From: Synechocystis sp. PCC 6803 substr. PCC-P
GTDB taxonomy: Bacteria > Cyanobacteriota > Cyanobacteriia > Cyanobacteriales > Microcystaceae
NCBI RefSeq assembly: GCF_000284455.1
Contig: NC_017039.1
Location: 3,360,001 to 3,392,000, forward strand
Direction of reading: 5' to 3'
DNA: 32,000 nucleotides
Both the position numbers and the translations under genes were made by a program. Below, one piece after another: positions 15,696 to 23,417 of the stretch. The notes beneath the pieces were generated by a model. The model saw nothing but the letters and a program-made list of their open reading frames with translations, was not told the DNA's origin and searched no databases. How positions within the stretch are numbered: the first letter of the stretch is position 1; every line of letters starts with the position of its first letter.

Positions 15696-16106
15696 ATGAA
15701 ACCTGAATTTGCCACTGTCCAGGCCTGGGAACAGGCAGATTGCCTGATGCAACCAGCTCTGATTCGCACCATTGACCATCTGCGACAAGGTTTGGAAAGT
15801 TGTCCCTGGCGCAGTCGCTACGAGGAGGTGCAGGAACCCATCCCAGGCCATCGGTTAATTCTGGAAAATGAGGGGCAAACCTACGGAGTTAACATTTGGG
15901 ATTTATGCTTTCAAGTCTGCTTTGCCAATTATCAAGCCCAGCCCTTTGGGGATAACTTGCCGGAGAATAATCAGGCTTTGGCAGTGGAAATAGACCAGGA
16001 CTTATTTAACGACCAAGGGGAAGTGGATTGGACGAAATTAGACCATAAAGCTCGCCATTGCGTGGAAGTATTTTTAGCCGCCCTGCCCACCGTTGGCCAT
16101 AGTTGA
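15696..16106 (+). CDS. Hypothetical protein (no family recognised)
   Basis: 136-aa ORF with an ATG start and composition like the neighbouring genes. Its last 33 nt overlap the 3' end of the convergent larB/cpmA ORF. Confidence 0.5.
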   Translation: MKPEFATVQAWEQADCLMQPALIRTIDHLRQGLESCPWRSRYEEVQEPIPGHRLILENEGQTYGVNIWDLCFQVCFANYQAQPFGDNLPENNQALAVEIDQDLFNDQGEVDWTKLDHKARHCVEVFLAALPTVGHS

Positions 16107-16913
16107 TTTTGATTGCAGGCGATCAACCGTGCGGAGAATTTGTCCTGCCAACATGGCCGCTCCAAAGCCGTTGTCAATATTGACTACCCCCACCCCCACT
16201 GCACAGGAATTGAGCATGGTTAACAGGGGAGCCACGCCGCCGAAACTGGTGCCATAACCGACGCTGGTGGGTACGCCAATCACAGGACAGTCCACTAATC
16301 CCGCCACCACACTGGGCAAAGCCCCTTCCATACCGGCCACCACAATCAACACATCCATGGCTTGGATTAATTCTCGATGGCTCAACAGTCGGTGAATGCC
16401 GGCAACTCCCACGTCCCAGAGTTTCTCCACTTTGAACCCGCAGAGGCTGGCAGTGATGGCCGCTTCCTCCGCCACGGGTAAATCCGCTGTACCTGCACTG
16501 AGAACGCCAATGGTACCGGAATATTTAATTTGTAAAGGGGTTTGCACCAGGGCACAAATGCGAGCTTGGGGATAGTACTGCAATAGAGGAATGCGATCGC
16601 CAAGGAGATCCGCCACCTCCGGCTCCACCCTGGTCACTAGCACCACCGGATTATGCACTGCTAAGACCTGGATAATCTGCTCAATTTGTTCTGGGGTTTT
16701 GCCTGGGCCCCACACAACTTCTGGAAAACCCGTCCGCAGTTGCCGCTGATGATCCACTTTGGCAAAATCATCGATCGCCTGGAAACTGAGGTGTTTAAGC
16801 TGCTCAAAACCCTCTTGGCTACTGATGTGGCCACTGGCGATCGCCGTGAGCAATTGTTGGAGGGAATCTGGGGTCATCGGTGCAGAAAACTGAAAAACAG
16901 GGCCACTGACCAT
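16074..16913 (-). CDS. larB: LarB-type NCAIR-mutase (PurE)-related protein; homolog of circadian phase modifier CpmA
   Basis: 279 aa. The C-terminal PurE-like fold shows GVLSAGTADLPVAEEA, IVVAGMEGALPSVVAGL, VIGVPTSVGYG and NIDNGFGAA. The N-terminal domain is typical of LarB/CpmA. Confidence 0.8.
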   Translation of the reverse strand: MVSGPVFQFSAPMTPDSLQQLLTAIASGHISSQEGFEQLKHLSFQAIDDFAKVDHQRQLRTGFPEVVWGPGKTPEQIEQIIQVLAVHNPVVLVTRVEPEVADLLGDRIPLLQYYPQARICALVQTPLQIKYSGTIGVLSAGTADLPVAEEAAITASLCGFKVEKLWDVGVAGIHRLLSHRELIQAMDVLIVVAGMEGALPSVVAGLVDCPVIGVPTSVGYGTSFGGVAPLLTMLNSCAVGVGVVNIDNGFGAAMLAGQILRTVDRLQSKSTMANGGQGG

Positions 16914-16928
16914 TCTGGACTATTTGGG

Positions 16929-17594
16929 CTAGGTTGCCCCGCCGTACATGGCCTGTAGTACCAGAGCCGGATCTACTAAAACTCCGTTATGGCGCAGTTC
17001 CCAATGGAGATGGGGCCCTGTGGTTCTTCCCGTCATGCCCACCCGACCAATGCGCATCCCCGCCACCACCTGTTGTCCCTGTTGGAGCACAATGCCCCCC
17101 TGGCGATCGACCAAATACCGTTGCCCCTGATGCACTTCCACCCCGCCCATTAAATGACAGTAAGTGTGCTGCCAAGGGCCGGACTGAATGCGAACCATGG
17201 TGCCGCAACCGGTATGGTCGGACATTTCCACCACTGTGCCATGCCACCAATTGCGTATGTAACTGCCCAGGGGCGCAGCCAAATCCAAGCCATTGTGGAA
17301 AGTGCTAGCCCCAGCGGTGGGGGCTCGGCGGGGACCAAACCCAGAAGTATATTGCTGGAAATTTTCCACCGGGAAAGAAGCATACTGCCAAGGGTTGGTG
17401 GAACTGGTAGCCACTGGAGCATATTGAGCAGCAACCTGGTTATTGGAGGCCAAAGCAATGGTCAAGGTGCTACTGGCCATAACCAGAGCGAGGAGAGATA
17501 TTAACGACCATAGTCGGCATTTTCTGACCCTGGGCCTGGATAAATTTCTACTTAACCAATGCTTTTGACGACAAGTTCGCCAGAAAGAGTTCAT
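16929..17594 (-). CDS. M23 (LytM-type) metallo-endopeptidase, membrane-anchored or secreted
   Basis: 221 aa with an N-terminal hydrophobic helix (LWSLISLLALVMASSTLTIALA). M23 Zn-ligand motifs are present: FHNGLDLAAPLG (HxxxD) and GRTTGPHLHWELRHNG (HxH). Confidence 0.85.
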   Translation of the reverse strand: MNSFWRTCRQKHWLSRNLSRPRVRKCRLWSLISLLALVMASSTLTIALASNNQVAAQYAPVATSSTNPWQYASFPVENFQQYTSGFGPRRAPTAGASTFHNGLDLAAPLGSYIRNWWHGTVVEMSDHTGCGTMVRIQSGPWQHTYCHLMGGVEVHQGQRYLVDRQGGIVLQQGQQVVAGMRIGRVGMTGRTTGPHLHWELRHNGVLVDPALVLQAMYGGAT

Positions 17595-17956
17595 AGCACA
17601 ATCCTCACACGTTTCACACTGCTCCCTAGTGTATGCCTAGAATTGTTCCCTGGCGAAGGTCAACTTATTTATCTCTGGAGGCATACCTGGGTGTGGGTAA
17701 AAAGCACGAAAATGCCCATTAATGCCCCTGTCGTCCGTAATGAGGAAAGATCTAGCAAAAGTCTTCTGGATGGAAAGAGGATTGCAAAAAGATTCTTCTC
17801 TAGAAAATCTTACTTTTCCAGTATTCTCCTAGACCATTAACTTTAGGCTTTAAGACCAGTTAAATTGGGCTTGGTTTGGTATAGATTGAGGTTAACTAGT
17901 TAAAAATACAGTCTATCTTGCTCCGTTGTTGTTGTTCTTCCGCCCCCCGCTGAGCC

Positions 17957-18616
17957 GTGCTCTACAAAATTCGCCACTATCCCAACTCGGTGTTGGCCGT
18001 TACGCTCAAACCCAAGGAACGGCTCTACATTAACCCCGGTTCCCTAATTAGCATGGATGGGGGATTGGTCGTTAGTCGGGTTTGTGGTGGAGGCTGGCTC
18101 CGGGCCTTGGCTCGGTTTTTATTGGGTAAAGAAAACTTAATGGTTAATGCCATCCATAATCCCAGCGATCAACCGTTAAGTTTTACCCTAGGCAAAGCCT
18201 TACCAGGAAATTTGACCAGGCTAGACTTACCCAAAAATGGCATAGTCATCAATCCAGGAGTACATGTTGCCCATACCAGCGGCGTCAATATGGGGGTGTA
18301 TTGGCTCGGTCTATCCAGTTGGTGGGGGGGGCAGGGTTTATTCGGTTTGAAACTCCAAGGTAAAGGCCGCGTCTTCCTTGGTAGCTACGGCACCCTTAAC
18401 CAGTTGTCCTGCCCCCAGAGTTTTGTGGTGGAGCACTCTCATTTAGTAGCGTTTCAGCCCAAGCTCAAGCTCAAAGTTAATTTTCCCCGGGGTATTGTTG
18501 GTGATCTCCAGTCCGGTCGGGGGCTGAGTTCCCTTCTAAAGGGCTCCGGCAACCTCTATTGGCAATCCCGTAGCTTGAGCAGTTTAGGCCGTTTTATCCG
18601 GCTCCGACTGCGCTGA
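17957..18616 (+). CDS. AIM24/DUF124-like protein, paralog 1 of 3
   Basis: 219 aa with a GTG start. Motifs are LYINPGSLISMDGG, LPGNLTRLDL, GQGLFGLKLQGKGRVFLGSYG and VVEHSHLVAFQPKLKLKV. These match my memory of the DUF124 (TIGR00266/PF01987) pattern. Confidence 0.65.
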   Translation: MLYKIRHYPNSVLAVTLKPKERLYINPGSLISMDGGLVVSRVCGGGWLRALARFLLGKENLMVNAIHNPSDQPLSFTLGKALPGNLTRLDLPKNGIVINPGVHVAHTSGVNMGVYWLGLSSWWGGQGLFGLKLQGKGRVFLGSYGTLNQLSCPQSFVVEHSHLVAFQPKLKLKVNFPRGIVGDLQSGRGLSSLLKGSGNLYWQSRSLSSLGRFIRLRLR

Positions 18617-18635
18617 TTTTTTCTTTGCCCGCCCT

Positions 18636-19316
18636 ATGAACATTAAACTTCTCAATTCCCCCCAAACGGCGATCGCCAGGGTACTTCTGGAGGCCAATGA
18701 AGAATTAGCAGCCCAGCATGGTTCTTTAATTGCCATGAGTCCCGACATTACGGTGCAAAGTTCCGTGCGGCGCACTAGCGATGGAGCAGGGAAACAGAGT
18801 AGCCGGGGCAATCAAGTTAAAACCATGTTTTTAAACAATTATCGAACCGGGGAAAATGGCGGTGAAATTTACCTGGCCCCTCCCCTAGTGGGAAACCTGG
18901 GGCACTATCAACTGGGCGGGAGGAAATTAATTGTCCGCCAAAGCTCCTACCTAGCATCCGATGGCAAGGTGGACATTTTCATGGGCTACAAATCCGCCGC
19001 CAAGAAAGAACCCTATTCCTGGCTGAGTTTGGTGGGCGTTGGAGATGTGTTAATCAGCTCCTTTGGGGCCATGTATTCCCTGGAAGTGAATGGCAAACAA
19101 ATTGTCAACTCCGACCATGTGGTGGCCTTTGATAACAGCCTCAAAGTTAAGCCGTATCAAGAGTTGCGTCCCTGGCCCAAACGTCTGGTGCCCAACCAAG
19201 AAATCCTCTATGAATTCAGTGGCACAGGTACAATTTTTTGCCAAACCCATGGTCCTCGGAATTTTGCTCGGGAAGTGGGTCGCCAACTCAAACCGGAAAA
19301 CTTCAAACTGCGCTAA
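18636..19316 (+). CDS. AIM24/DUF124-like protein, paralog 2 of 3
   Basis: 226 aa, starting 19 nt after paralog 1. Equivalent blocks are AAQHGSLIAMSPD, LVGNLGHYQL, LSLVGVGDVLISSFG and VNSDHVVAFDNSLKVKP. Confidence 0.6.
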   Translation: MNIKLLNSPQTAIARVLLEANEELAAQHGSLIAMSPDITVQSSVRRTSDGAGKQSSRGNQVKTMFLNNYRTGENGGEIYLAPPLVGNLGHYQLGGRKLIVRQSSYLASDGKVDIFMGYKSAAKKEPYSWLSLVGVGDVLISSFGAMYSLEVNGKQIVNSDHVVAFDNSLKVKPYQELRPWPKRLVPNQEILYEFSGTGTIFCQTHGPRNFAREVGRQLKPENFKLR

Positions 19317-19369
19317 ATCATAAACCGAAACCACTAATATCATTGCCCTGTAACTGAAATCTGCCCGCC

Positions 19370-20224
19370 ATGATGGAAGAAGAATCCCTAGAAAAGCTCG
19401 AAGAAAGTCTAGAACAGATCGACCCTGAGGAGGATTTGGAAGAGGATTACACCCAACATCTCTTTGCCCATCCCCGGGAAGCAGGGGGAGATAACCAGGT
19501 ACGTCCTACAGATGATGAATTTAATCTTCCCTACAGCATTAATGGCCATGCCCTGTACGCCACCCTGGAGCTGACCCTGAAGCCCGGTCAAATTGTCCTT
19601 GTTGATGCCAATGTAGTCACTGCCATGGACCGTTCTGTTCTCTTTGTTAACAAATTGCGGGGGGGATTGTTGGATGTCCTCCGTAAAGCCCTAGGGATAG
19701 ATACCCTATTTCTTAACCAATTTACGGCAGAACAAAGCGTTGGCCACCTGCAATTGGCGCCAGCCCTACCGGGGGATATTTGTCATTATTTTTTAACCAC
19801 AGAAAAAGGTATTTATCTCCGGGCAGATAACTTCCTGGCCTGCCAACCAACGGTGAAAATTGACACTAATTTCGCCAGTATGAAGCATTTTTATAACGAT
19901 AGTGAGAGTTTTTTATTGCGTTTAGTCGGACAGGGGGATTTGTGGTTCAGTCTTTATGGTGGTTTGGTGCAGGTTTCCATGAACGGCGATCTGGCCTATA
20001 ATCCCGATTACATTGTTGCATTTGAAGATACCCTGGATTACCAAATGACTAAACAGGAGGGGCTCGCCGTCGATCGCCTACGGGGGGACGTGTGGGGTGG
20101 TAAGGGTAGATTGTGCCGCTTCACTGGCCAGGGGAAAATTTGGCTCCAGGCCCGTCAGGCCAATAGCTTTTTGAACTATGTCCAATCAATTTTGCTCAAT
20201 TTACGTTTTCCCCGACTGAATTAG
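19370..20224 (+). CDS. AIM24/DUF124-like protein, paralog 3 of 3, with an acidic N-terminal extension
   Basis: 284 aa, starting 53 nt after paralog 2. The first approx. 55 aa are highly acidic (MMEEESLEKLEESLEQIDPEEDLEEDY). Then come LKPGQIVLVDANVVTAMDRS, LPGDICHYFL, LLRLVGQGDLWFSLYG and NPDYIVAFEDTLDYQM. Confidence 0.6.
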   Translation: MMEEESLEKLEESLEQIDPEEDLEEDYTQHLFAHPREAGGDNQVRPTDDEFNLPYSINGHALYATLELTLKPGQIVLVDANVVTAMDRSVLFVNKLRGGLLDVLRKALGIDTLFLNQFTAEQSVGHLQLAPALPGDICHYFLTTEKGIYLRADNFLACQPTVKIDTNFASMKHFYNDSESFLLRLVGQGDLWFSLYGGLVQVSMNGDLAYNPDYIVAFEDTLDYQMTKQEGLAVDRLRGDVWGGKGRLCRFTGQGKIWLQARQANSFLNYVQSILLNLRFPRLN

Positions 20225-20401
20225 GGGGATCAACGCATTTACGGAGGACTTGGGCCATGGTAGGATTACCAGGTGAAATTAGGTTATGGGCATTAAAAAT
20301 AAGCTTTTGCTTCAACGAATTAGAGCGGAAACTCACACCACTTTTGATCCGCAGTCGAAATTAAAACCACTACAAACATCACAACTTTTTTGGCTAGACC
20401 G

Positions 20402-21196
20402 ATGACAATGGGGGACGATCTCTGGGGATGGCAGAACATCAATGGTTCACCCTATCTCACCTGTGCTTTGTTGGCTCCCTGGCCCCATGCCTTTTTCACC
20501 AGAGCCTTCTATCCCCAATTGCCCGAACAACTGATCACCTATCTTGATCCCCAAGGAAAAGCTTTCCGGGTCAAACAGGTTCATGGGGACGTAACCCTAA
20601 CGGCAACGGAAATTGGCCAAACTCCCTTGGCCCCAGACAGTACCCATCCCCCAGCGGATGGCATCATTAGCGACGCTCCCCACCAAGGGGTCTGGGTGGC
20701 CAGTGCGGACTGTACCCCGGTATTGATTGGCGATTTGATTGGTAAACGTGTGGCGGCGATTCATGCAGGCTGGCGGGGGACCAAAGCCAGAATTGTGCCC
20801 AAAACCATCGATAAATTTCTGGCCCTGGGTAGTGAGTTAAAGGATTTACGGGTTGCCCTAGGCCCGGCGATCGCCGGAGAGGTGTATCAAGTCGATCCCT
20901 GGGTGGCCTTGGAAGTGGGGCAAAGTGTGCAAGCAGTACAAAAATTAGCGACAGAAGAACAGCAATGGGACCATTTATCCACCATGGTGAACCCGCCCGT
21001 GTTACCTGATGCAGAACCGGAAAAATATCGCCTTGATGTGCGTCGCATCAATCAATTGCAACTGTTAGAGTTAGGTTTTGCCCAGGAACAGATTGCTGTG
21101 GCCCCCCACTGTACTTTCCAAATGGAAGAACTTTTTTTCTCCTATCGCCGTACCCACACCAAGGAGGTGCAATGGTCTGGCATTGTCAGTTACTGA
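20402..21196 (+). CDS. pgeF: YfiH/PgeF-family protein (DUF152; purine nucleoside phosphorylase/laccase-like, peptidoglycan editing factor)
   Basis: The ORF is open from TTG at 20390; the first ATG is at 20402. Conserved blocks are VKQVHGDV, ADGIISD, SADCTPVLI and AIHAGWRGT (the His/Cys/His metal triad pattern), plus the C-terminal FSYRR. Confidence 0.8.
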   Translation: MTMGDDLWGWQNINGSPYLTCALLAPWPHAFFTRAFYPQLPEQLITYLDPQGKAFRVKQVHGDVTLTATEIGQTPLAPDSTHPPADGIISDAPHQGVWVASADCTPVLIGDLIGKRVAAIHAGWRGTKARIVPKTIDKFLALGSELKDLRVALGPAIAGEVYQVDPWVALEVGQSVQAVQKLATEEQQWDHLSTMVNPPVLPDAEPEKYRLDVRRINQLQLLELGFAQEQIAVAPHCTFQMEELFFSYRRTHTKEVQWSGIVSY

Positions 21197-21932: not shown

Positions 21933-23417
21933 TTGTATCCACGGAAACTCCCCTTTGTCAACTTTCATGGAATTTTCATGCCCTTTGTTGCCATTGCTTT
22001 CGCCAAAATTTTTGATACCCTCGACGCCACCACCCTAAGTTTTGGGCGCACCCAACTTTCCCTCTTGGATTTATTCCAGTTGGCCCTATCTGCCCTAGCC
22101 ATATTCGTTTTAACCCACTACCTCAATCGGGTTTTACGGAGCATTGTTCTACGGCGTTTTATTTATGAACAAGGCATCCGCTACATTGTGGCCAATTTGT
22201 TGAGCTATGGTTTGGGTTCTTTTTTGTTCATTGCCATGCTCCAAACCAGTGGCATTAACCTCTCTTCTCTCACGGTGGTGGGGGGCACCCTTGGGCTAGG
22301 GATTGGTTTAGGTCTGCAAAATGTGACCCGTAATTTTGTTAGTGGGGTAACTCTGCTGGTGGAGCAAAAGGTCAAAATTGGCGACTATATCCGCTTTCAG
22401 AACATTCAGGGTTATGTGCGGGAAGTATCCACCAGGGCCGTGGTGGTGGGACTCAAGGATGGCTCCAAAGTAATTTTGCCCAGTAGTCTACTGATCGAAA
22501 ATCAGGTGATTAACTATCATTACGAAACGCAAACGGTGCGTTTGACCGTGGCCGTGGGGGTGGCCTATGGCACTGATCCGGTGTTGGTGACGGAAACCCT
22601 TTTGATGTGTGCCTATAGCCAAGCCTGTGTGGTCAAAACTCCCCCAGCCCAGGTGATTTTCCAGAATTTTGGCGACAATGCGTTGGAATTTGAGCTTTGG
22701 GTCTGGATTGAAGAGCAATACATGGGCCAGCATCCGGAAATTCTTAGTGCCCTACGCTACACTATTTGCTTTTACTTTAAGCGCAATGGCATTGGCATCC
22801 CTTGGCCCCAACGGGAACTCTGGCTTAAAAATCCCGAGGCGATCGCCAAATATTTTCACCCGGATTTGGATTTGCCCAGCCTGTCTGACCCAGCGCCCCA
22901 AGAACCGACCATTTCCCTCAGTCAGGTTTTGAAATCGAGTGACTATTTCAGTGGCTTAAACGAGTTGGAAATTCGCCAGTTGGTGGAAATTGGCCAGTTA
23001 CAATCCCTGCAATCGGAGGAGGTGCTTTTTCGGGAACGGGATCCAGCCGATGGCTTTTACATTGTCATTTCTGGGCTGGTGGAAGTCTATACGGAGAAAC
23101 TGGGTCGGGTACTGGCGAGTTTGGGACCTGGTAGTTTCTTTGGTGAATTAGCCTTGATGCTGGGCATTCCCCGCACTGCCTCGGTTAAAGCTAAGGAAAA
23201 ATCTCTCCTGTTTGTGGTGCGATTTCCCCAATTTGAACAATTGCTACAAAGCAATCCTGATTTCCGTGAAGCTATTATCAATGCGTTGGGGGAACACCAA
23301 GGGGAATTAATGCGCCGCAAAGAAGAACTGGCCACCAAGGGTCTCCTTACTTCGGAAGAGGAAGATAGTAATATTATGAACTGGGTGCGTAAACGGCTCC
23401 AGCGGCTATTTGGTTAG
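21933..23417 (+). CDS. MscS-family mechanosensitive channel fused to a C-terminal cyclic-nucleotide-binding domain
   Basis: 494 aa from TTG at 21933 (alternative ATG at 21978). TM helices are followed by the MscS beta-domain (VKIGDYIRFQNIQGYVREVSTRAVVVGLKDGSKVILPSSLLIENQVINY). The C-terminal CAP/cNMP fold shows FRERDPADGFYIVISGLVEV and FGELALMLGIPRTASVKA. Confidence 0.85.
   Translation: MYPRKLPFVNFHGIFMPFVAIAFAKIFDTLDATTLSFGRTQLSLLDLFQLALSALAIFVLTHYLNRVLRSIVLRRFIYEQGIRYIVANLLSYGLGSFLFIAMLQTSGINLSSLTVVGGTLGLGIGLGLQNVTRNFVSGVTLLVEQKVKIGDYIRFQNIQGYVREVSTRAVVVGLKDGSKVILPSSLLIENQVINYHYETQTVRLTVAVGVAYGTDPVLVTETLLMCAYSQACVVKTPPAQVIFQNFGDNALEFELWVWIEEQYMGQHPEILSALRYTICFYFKRNGIGIPWPQRELWLKNPEAIAKYFHPDLDLPSLSDPAPQEPTISLSQVLKSSDYFSGLNELEIRQLVEIGQLQSLQSEEVLFRERDPADGFYIVISGLVEVYTEKLGRVLASLGPGSFFGELALMLGIPRTASVKAKEKSLLFVVRFPQFEQLLQSNPDFREAIINALGEHQGELMRRKEELATKGLLTSEEEDSNIMNWVRKRLQRLFG

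Follow-up and report, generated by a model that had tools for sequence, protein, structure and literature searches.

Three adjacent genes, slr1570, slr1571 and slr1572, encoded in a stretch of 32,000 nucleotides of the genome of Synechocystis sp. PCC 6803 substr. PCC-P (contig NC_017039.1, positions 3,360,001 to 3,392,000; this whole stretch is referred to as the window), have been identified in the current analysis as members of a three-gene module of AIM24 (DUF124) proteins that is widespread in bacteria. What is new here is a conserved triad of specialised AIM24 lineages, called paralogs A, B and C, which are kept in a fixed order and are usually coupled to a gene for a membrane protease of the M48 family. 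We propose, at about even odds (a probability of roughly 0.5), that the trio is the Synechocystis copy of an ancient module, the products of which would form an A:B:C ring of 1:1:1 stoichiometry on the cytoplasmic face of the membrane and work together with an M48 protease.

The locus tags have been confirmed with published single guide RNAs (sgRNAs), which map onto the three open reading frames (ORFs) in that order; further downstream, those for slr1573 fall on a PgeF-type gene and those for slr1575 on a gene for a channel of MscS and cyclic nucleotide monophosphate (cNMP) binding type. An earlier description of this DNA made from its letters alone, referred to as the sequence-only reading, had reported three same-strand ORFs of 219, 226 and 284 residues separated by 19 and 53 nucleotides and preceded by a gap of 362 nucleotides. 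The ORF coordinates (Table 1) agree with this, and all the motif blocks quoted there are found in the translations. Proteins of the window have exact counterparts on CP003265.1 and its sister records, near 3.37 Mb. The three genes are adjacent, lie on the same strand and are classified as A, B and C in that order.

All the three proteins match the Pfam family PF01987 (205 model positions, gathering score 25.7 bits), with scores of 146.6 bits (E=1.1e-42) for A, 126.3 bits (E=1.7e-36) for B and 153.1 bits (E=1e-44) for C. The matches extend from model positions 1-3 to 205 of 205 and in paralog C the match spans residues 55-262. The NCBIfam hypothetical equivalog TIGR00266, which has a curated cut-off of 96.6 bits, recognises A and C with 317.6 and 357.8 bits and is cleared only marginally by slr1571, with 99.9 bits. 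In a three-way alignment the second and third copies are each 25% identical to the first, with 25 invariant columns, and slr1571 is the most diverged of the three Synechocystis copies. The assignment to AIM24/DUF124 made by the sequence-only reading is thus confirmed by the searches for all three ORFs, and for B and C by the fold as well.

The only solved relatives detected by sequence are 1YOX (PA3696), which holds 6 chains, and 1PG6 (SpyM3_0169). The AlphaFold2 (AF2) model of paralog C has a predicted local distance difference test score (pLDDT) of about 90 in its core and that of paralog B has a pLDDT of 87 with a predicted TM-score (pTM) of 0.84. Foldseek matches of both models, in a copy of the PDB up to April 2026, are to 1pg6 and 1yox only, at probability 1.0 and with TM-scores (normalised to the target) of 0.73-0.82 for paralog B and 0.80-0.86 for paralog C. 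Three TRAP-like beta-sandwich repeats (TRAP being the trp RNA-binding attenuation protein) followed by a C-terminal helix, which constitute the AIM24 fold, are present in both models. The helix of paralog B comprises residues 207-217 and is the equivalent of the paralog C helix listed in Table 1. No structure newer than 1PG6 and 1YOX that informs the mechanism is found in the PDB to April 2026. PA3696 and SpyM3_0169 thus share the Pfam and TIGR family and the fold with the trio; they are single genes modelled as homotrimers (PMC6677890), whereas the window encodes three specialised lineages in a fixed order.

Loci, 80 in number, were fetched with a profile of paralog-C relatives, one genome per species and almost all of them from cyanobacteria. 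In an ORF scan followed by classification, the order A-B-C on one strand holds for 75 of 84 loci, two of them with A split by a frameshift, and most of the others are cut by contig ends. The median spacers over 70 triads are 21 nucleotides between A and B and 48 nucleotides between B and C. Gene A is split into two or three ORFs at L021, L033 and L096 (retrieved loci are given L numbers), which may be due to assembly frameshifts or to real pseudogenisation of A alone. A cyanobacterial-type A-B-C triad, with a C protein 39% identical to slr1572, has also been noted at L069 on a contig labelled as a metagenome-assembled genome (MAG) of Sphingobacterium thalpophilum; this contig is probably mis-binned.

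In a tree of 24 diverse triads, computed with a distance cap for saturated distances, A, B and C are each monophyletic with bootstrap support of 100/100. Identity between the paralogs is 33-40% in typical cyanobacteria, and the Synechocystis copies are more derived. The orthogroup profiles, which include the window sequences, score the window proteins at 288-333 bits on their own group and 67-127 bits on the other two. In each paralog, 28-35 residues show a conservation of at least 90% and are not shared with the other two, as compared to 12 that are common to all three, and each paralog has a distinct conserved C-terminal motif, exemplified by ...WIQSRxLxxLxNFLNPFRP..., which is specific to paralog C. 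In the 70-row alignment of C orthologs, the rows of L001 and L005 had been trimmed by 20-40 N-terminal residues in the automatic choice of starts; they were left out of the count of unique residues for C, and their effect on the tree and on the ratio of nonsynonymous to synonymous substitution rates (dN/dS) is negligible. The dN/dS values are 0.09 for A, 0.078 for B and 0.091 for C, and each of the three genes is under strong purifying selection.

These values bear on the view that the trio consists of duplicates that are redundant or in decay and share no function, to which the low identity of the Synechocystis copies, about 25% only, and the score of B barely over the TIGR00266 cut-off could lend some colour. 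That view is effectively refuted, because each copy is under strong purifying selection and is kept across phyla, paralog B folds with high confidence in the model and all three proteins are expressed. The picture of old, diverged copies kept adjacent, put forward in the sequence-only reading, is borne out instead by the 100/100 monophyly, by the same order across phyla and by the purifying selection.

Triads have been identified well beyond the cyanobacteria. The Bacteroidota replicons p1 of Flammeovirga kamogawensis and pAT2 of Aureibacter tunicatorum each encode three adjacent TIGR00266 genes, which the profiles assign, by margins of about 60-115 bits, to A, B and C in turn, and the same order is observed at L099, L101 and L102, loci of 35-68% GC. 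A HMMER search with paralog B against 1.84 billion representatives gave 470 relatives at E<=1e-3; among the best 150 of these 470, 35 are clearly of B type. The distant B-type proteins for which the genomic context was fetched are in five of five cases the middle gene of a triad, and these five triads include one in a bin labelled Myxococcota and one of a flagellated bacterium with low GC. Six non-cyanobacterial B-type sequences served as seeds for a metagenome scan, which returned 80 loci; in these, all 65 complete arrays have the order A-B-C and no permuted order occurs. The three-gene arrangement, a survey of which had been suggested with the sequence-only reading, is thus kept in related genomes and in other phyla. 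Wherever the interpretation given in the sequence-only reading could be put to the test it is supported, and no outcome named there as refuting it was observed.

AIM24 genes are mostly single in haloarchaea, Enterococcus, Lactococcus, Pseudomonas and others. Two such singletons, a haloarchaeal gene and a gene of a Leptolyngbya plasmid, were tested on the A, B and C profiles and neither classifies as A, B or C.

Clustering of all the genes that flank the cyanobacterial triads revealed one recurrent family only, a protein of about 273 residues encoded immediately downstream on the same strand. It has been assigned to Peptidase_M48 (E=2e-28), hence a zinc metalloprotease, and has an N-terminal hydrophobic anchor. 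Its gene is found downstream of the triad in 40 of the 71 cyanobacterial loci with room for it, and among the loci that do not have it practically every one has a different gene in that place. In Bacteroidota, and likewise in many contigs from metagenomes, a gene for an M48 protein of 353-380 residues is situated directly upstream of A, and at L102 the M48 gene lies beside the triad and is divergently transcribed, which makes three geometries relative to the triad: downstream, upstream and divergent. An M48 gene is adjacent in 30 of 33 metagenomic arrays having at least 1.3 kb on both sides. The linked proteases from outside the cyanobacteria are recognised by the profile of the cyanobacterial M48 proteins, with E values from 1e-28 to 1e-38.

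The best NCBIfam matches of the linked M48 proteins are BepA and LoiP, at 66-117 bits, which is far under the curated cut-offs of 365-570 bits. As in these proteases, the HExxH domain is probably extracytoplasmic. The linked proteins contain one strong transmembrane segment, and its N-terminal flank, richer in K/R, suggests an N-in orientation from the sequence. They are unlike BepA and LoiP in their low scores, in having a single N-terminal anchor and, outside the cyanobacteria, in an extra domain. This is a conserved domain of about 100 residues that precedes the membrane anchor, has no Pfam match and is lacking in the cyanobacterial versions (examples are given in Table 1); it is probably cytoplasmic.

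The subunit of AIM24 has been described as three TRAP-like beta-sandwiches, and a template-based model arranges the subunits as a flat homotrimer ring with the C-terminal helices towards the membrane (PMC6677890). By analogy with this homotrimer of single-copy members, the three paralogs would join at 1:1:1 to give a heterotrimeric ring with pseudo-symmetry, which would comprise nine TRAP-like domains and have a mass of about 80 kDa. The obligate hetero-oligomer suggested in the sequence-only reading would be compatible with the published ring model. In sequence analysis no transmembrane segment or signal-like stretch is detected in A, B or C; their C-termini are basic and the tail of A is strongly amphipathic, with a net charge of +4 and a hydrophobic moment (muH) of 0.78 (medians over orthologs). 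Because of the absence of a signal peptide or membrane-spanning segment, and of the basic helices with a strongly amphipathic one in A, docking of the ring on the cytoplasmic membrane face through the C-terminal helices is suggested. The docked ring may serve as a scaffold or regulator of a membrane protein, which in most lineages would be the co-encoded M48 protease, and the ring and protease together may take part in signalling or in the quality control of membrane or envelope proteins. In the clade of Synechocystis the protease gene would no longer be adjacent and subunit C would have gained an acidic disordered tail.

Known heterotrimeric rings offer a precedent for such a course. In the sliding clamps, namely the crenarchaeal PCNA1-2-3 and the eukaryotic 9-1-1 complexes, a homotrimer ring became three diverged paralogs, each with a partner surface of its own. 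The fold and function of the clamps are unrelated to those of AIM24, and the analogy is confined to the evolutionary route. It is also known that genes in operons tend to be arranged in the sequence in which their products are assembled into a complex. Another parallel is given by HflK/C with FtsH and by stomatin with NfeD, in which the gene of an oligomeric membrane scaffold neighbours that of a membrane protease, or the two proteins cooperate, and the interaction is proven. These scaffolds have the SPFH fold and not the AIM24 fold, their proteases belong to other families, and the interaction of the triad with M48 is inferred only.

The proteins of the trio are produced in the cell. Slr1570, Slr1571 and Slr1572 are marked as identified in all the five columns of the mass spectrometry (MS) detection table in the supplement of PMC9175036. 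According to the same supplement, Slr1570 and Slr1572 are also quantified by MS and, relative to low-CO2 autotrophy, show a mild decrease under high CO2, in mixotrophy and in heterotrophy, with log2 fold changes of -0.2 to -0.7. In a Grad-seq study, where fractions above 5 contain complexes larger than about 250 kDa, Slr1572 has been detected in all replicates with its peak in fraction 5 and a shoulder into fractions 6-7. The tags slr1570-slr1572 are not present in the CRISPR interference (CRISPRi) fitness tables of Miao 2023.

Several observations weigh against the proposed ring with an M48 partner. The recurrent M48 neighbour, the most informative clue obtained, is absent from the Synechocystis window: the profile of linked M48 proteins finds nothing in the 32 kb and the triad is followed by PgeF (slr1573) instead. 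A Synechocystis ortholog of the linked M48 is not among the best 120 of 1011 matches. Triads without an adjacent M48 gene also occur at L088, L096, L097 and L101. The HExxH domain is predicted to be outside the cytoplasm, as in BepA and LoiP, and the AIM24 proteins look cytoplasmic, so that a direct contact of enzyme and regulator is not obvious; the linked M48 of cyanobacteria has about 17 cytoplasmic residues only. The peak of Slr1572 in Grad-seq lies below the threshold of about 250 kDa, which fits a trimer of 80 kDa and equally other states, and Slr1570-Slr1572 are not listed in the supplement of the Synechocystis complexome (Xu 2021). Covariation of the distance matrices among A, B, C and M48 is uniform (r = 0.70-0.80) and does not discriminate between the pairs. 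Lastly, three or four MAG contigs are true exceptions to the triad, encoding C alone or only B-C with space upstream for the missing genes.

The last of these points would be expected if A, B and C formed three separate homo-oligomeric rings, each with its own partner or ligand, that are clustered for co-regulation only, as a case of sub-functionalisation with no mixed complex. Many organisms evidently manage with a single-copy AIM24 protein that works by itself, and the approximately 30 uniquely conserved residues and the individual C-terminal motif of each paralog could mean different partners. This arrangement is considered rather unlikely, as order and co-occurrence hold strictly from phylum to phylum despite many rearrangements of the flanks, the spacers are tight, dN/dS is similar in all three and the sampled B-type proteins are always inside a triad and never alone. 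Strict order, co-occurrence, tight spacers and similar dN/dS constitute a pattern typical of complex subunits, and for this reason A, B and C are taken as subunits of one complex in the reading preferred here.

The resemblance of each AIM24 repeat to the subunit fold of TRAP raises the question whether the trio is a soluble, TRAP-like ring, a ligand sensor or RNA binder that would take up a small molecule or nucleic acid and regulate gene expression or an enzyme, with M48 as its target or as a coincidence. AIM24 and TRAP are both thought to form rings, the proteins of the trio are hydrophilic with no transmembrane segment, and Slr1572 trails into Grad-seq fractions in which many RNAs sediment. 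TRAP is, unlike AIM24, an 11-mer of single-domain subunits that bind tryptophan and RNA, and neither activity is indicated for the trio. No Rfam family is detected at E<=1 across positions 17300-20500, the leader upstream of slr1570 included, so that no riboswitch or known RNA element is apparent at the locus, and Pfam detects no nucleic-acid-binding domain in the proteins. The characterised eukaryotic members act at membranes and not on RNA, and the recurrent partner is a membrane protease. We regard a TRAP-like sensor as improbable.

A function in stress response or defence, akin to that of the AIM24 genes in the Ter clusters for tellurite, phage and colicin resistance, is judged quite improbable. 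AIM24 genes have been reported in ter clusters of Psychrobacter and often beside terD (Anantharaman et al. 2012, as cited in PMC5822837); as far as that account goes, they are of the same family and their neighbourhood hints at a membrane-associated stress complex. In the same account the Ter-cluster AIM24 is a single gene among terD and terC, whereas the window has three paralogs and no ter genes, and their relatives are linked to M48. A TerC gene 3 kb upstream of the Myxococcota triad and the location of some relatives beside restriction-modification or Schlafen-like genes would be in keeping with such a function. No ter gene is encoded in the window, in the 20-kb context or in the recurrent cyanobacterial flank clusters, and no family of PADLOC or PHROGs matches the three proteins at E<=0.01. 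The triad behaves as a core gene set, being phylum-wide with monophyletic lineages and a dN/dS of about 0.08, and the AIM24 gene in restriction-modification context is a singleton that is not classified as A, B or C.

This singleton is the gene of the plasmid of Leptolyngbya sp. BL0902 (L095), a lone unclassified AIM24 situated between genes for a Uma2 endonuclease and an Eco57I-type restriction-modification methylase. At L096, a metagenomic triad precedes genes for Schlafen/AlbA_2-ATPase, DNA methylase and NotI. Some AIM24 members are therefore found in surroundings that resemble defence islands. In the Myxococcota-labelled bin (L097), genes for GIDE and a protein kinase lie between TerC and the triad, and the proximity of TerC is a faint echo of the association of single-copy AIM24 members with Ter.

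The third copy has been described in the sequence-only reading as carrying a highly acidic N-terminal tail. The tail is real: the 54 residues ahead of the domain of slr1572 contain 19 D/E against 3 K/R, and they are predicted by AlphaFold to be disordered (pLDDT 32-56). It is restricted to the clade of Synechocystis and Merismopediaceae and is not general to the module, as N-terminal extensions of 26-54 residues in paralog C are found only in L001-L013 (Synechocystis, Snowella and Merismopediaceae), the paralog in most other cyanobacteria having 3-10 residues ahead of the domain.

No function is known for any bacterial AIM24 member (PMC6677890), in agreement with the sequence-only reading, and a literature search revealed nothing newer. 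No paper mentioning both AIM24 and M48 was found in that search. Mentions of 'DUF124' in papers on type VI secretion (T6SS) have been dropped as a lead, as the word-start match catches DUF1240-DUF1249 and not DUF124.

The eukaryotic members considered here, from yeast and plants, stabilise membrane complexes. Yeast Aim24, of the mitochondrial inner membrane, is firmly membrane-bound without a predicted transmembrane helix and stabilises MICOS, the system that organises cristae and contact sites in mitochondria (PMC3975624). It shares with the trio the AIM24 domain and the lack of a transmembrane helix, and differs in being a single eukaryotic protein with no reported link to a protease, the MICOS partners being absent from cyanobacteria. 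The plant proteins PAWH1 and PAWH2, of the AIM24-B subfamily, stabilise the Hrd1 complex of endoplasmic reticulum (ER)-associated degradation (ERAD) (PMC6677890). They too have the AIM24 domain, and their predicted assembly is a flat ring of three subunits whose C-terminal helices point at the membrane, as part of a membrane-bound quality-control machine (PMC6677890). Unlike A, B and C, they are a near-identical, redundant pair with real C-terminal transmembrane helices, and their partner is a ubiquitin ligase and not an M48 protease. It is possible, though doubtful, that the ring and the single-pass M48 protein constitute an unrecognised transmembrane device for proteolytic quality control or signalling, common to many bacteria, and that this was the ancestral task of AIM24, later reused for MICOS and for Hrd1 ERAD.

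The immediate surroundings of the trio in Synechocystis are different from those of its relatives. The trio is flanked by two cell-wall-related genes, an M23 peptidase gene divergent from it upstream and a gene for the peptidoglycan editing factor PgeF downstream (slr1573, 266 bits in NCBIfam against a cut-off of 141 bits), and neither neighbour recurs at other cyanobacterial loci. The product of slr1573 is called a 'laccase' in metabolic-engineering papers. The M23 peptidase gene adjoins a gene for LarB of nickel-pincer cofactor biosynthesis (293 bits against a cut-off of 175 bits); no LarA, LarC or LarE is apparent within the 20-kb context. Two ORFs further upstream, which we take by position to be slr1567 and slr1568, code for 765 and 136 residues; no Pfam family is assigned to the former in the precomputed context table, nor to the latter in that table or in our own Pfam scan. 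Downstream, slr1575 codes for a MscS-type mechanosensitive channel fused to a C-terminal cyclic-nucleotide-binding domain.

The intergenic leader is plausible as the site of a promoter of the trio's own. A crude scan for sigma-70-like consensus, which does not speak against a promoter, found no match in the leader and overall fewer matches than in shuffled sequence, and an equally crude scan for terminator-like sites, again with fewer matches than in shuffled sequence, found none in the A-B and B-C spacers. Two antisense RNAs and one internal sense transcript from the supplement of Yao 2020 have been mapped onto the trio, and the internal start in slr1572 may contribute to the expression of slr1573.

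Table 1. Features of the slr1570-slr1572 region (positions in the window) and of related loci (positions in the locus named)
Feature	Positions	Strand	Remarks
ORF upstream of trio, 765 aa	13118-15415	+	taken as slr1567
ORF upstream of trio, 136 aa	15696-16106	+	taken as slr1568
LarB gene	16074-16913	-	
M23 peptidase gene	16929-17594	-	divergent from trio
Intergenic leader, M23 peptidase gene to slr1570	17595-17956		362 nt
slr1570, AIM24 paralog A	17957-18616	+	219 aa, GTG start
Position of an sgRNA, slr1570	18000-18023		published sgRNAs
Antisense RNA slr1570-as	18002-18173	-	Yao 2020 supplement, mapped
A-B spacer	18617-18635		19 nt
slr1571, AIM24 paralog B	18636-19316	+	226 aa
Position of an sgRNA, slr1571	18660-18681		published sgRNAs
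B-C spacer	19317-19369		53 nt
slr1572, AIM24 paralog C	19370-20224	+	284 aa
Acidic tail of slr1572, predicted disordered	19370-19519	+	N-terminal residues 1-50
sgRNA positions, slr1572	19388-19446		published sgRNAs
Antisense RNA slr1572-as	19762-19895	-	Yao 2020 supplement, mapped
Internal sense transcript 'intern slr1572'	19985-20215	+	starts inside slr1572; Yao 2020 supplement, mapped
Predicted C-terminal helix of slr1572	20159-20206	+	residues 264-279, DSSP on AF2 model
slr1573, PgeF	20390-21196	+	
slr1575, MscS-type channel	21933-23417	+	
Split gene A	L021 4442-5198		two or three ORFs
Split gene A	L033 4551-5233		two or three ORFs
Split gene A	L096 4292-4949		two or three ORFs
M48 gene with extra N-terminal domain	L093 2463-3605		
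M48 gene with extra N-terminal domain	L094 2475-3593		
M48 gene with extra N-terminal domain	L099 764-1882		
M48 gene with extra N-terminal domain	L102 2972-4033		
Lone AIM24 gene, Leptolyngbya sp. BL0902 plasmid	L095 4001-4687		
Defence-island-like surroundings of a metagenomic triad	L096 6433-9692		
TerC gene, Myxococcota-labelled bin	L097 169-1122		about 3 kb upstream of triad

Eukaryotic AIM24 members matter for mitochondrial architecture and for protein quality control in the ER. The linkage to M48 is the first concrete lead to the role of the bacterial AIM24 proteins. The question now becomes approachable, since there is a defined three-subunit module under strong selection, probably a heterotrimeric ring by analogy with the single-copy members, and a named candidate partner, the M48 membrane metalloprotease. 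Synechocystis 6803 is genetically tractable, all three proteins are expressed in it and CRISPRi guides exist for all three genes. If the proposal is true, a heterotrimer of paralogs would break the symmetry of the ring and would thereby help to map which face of it binds what.

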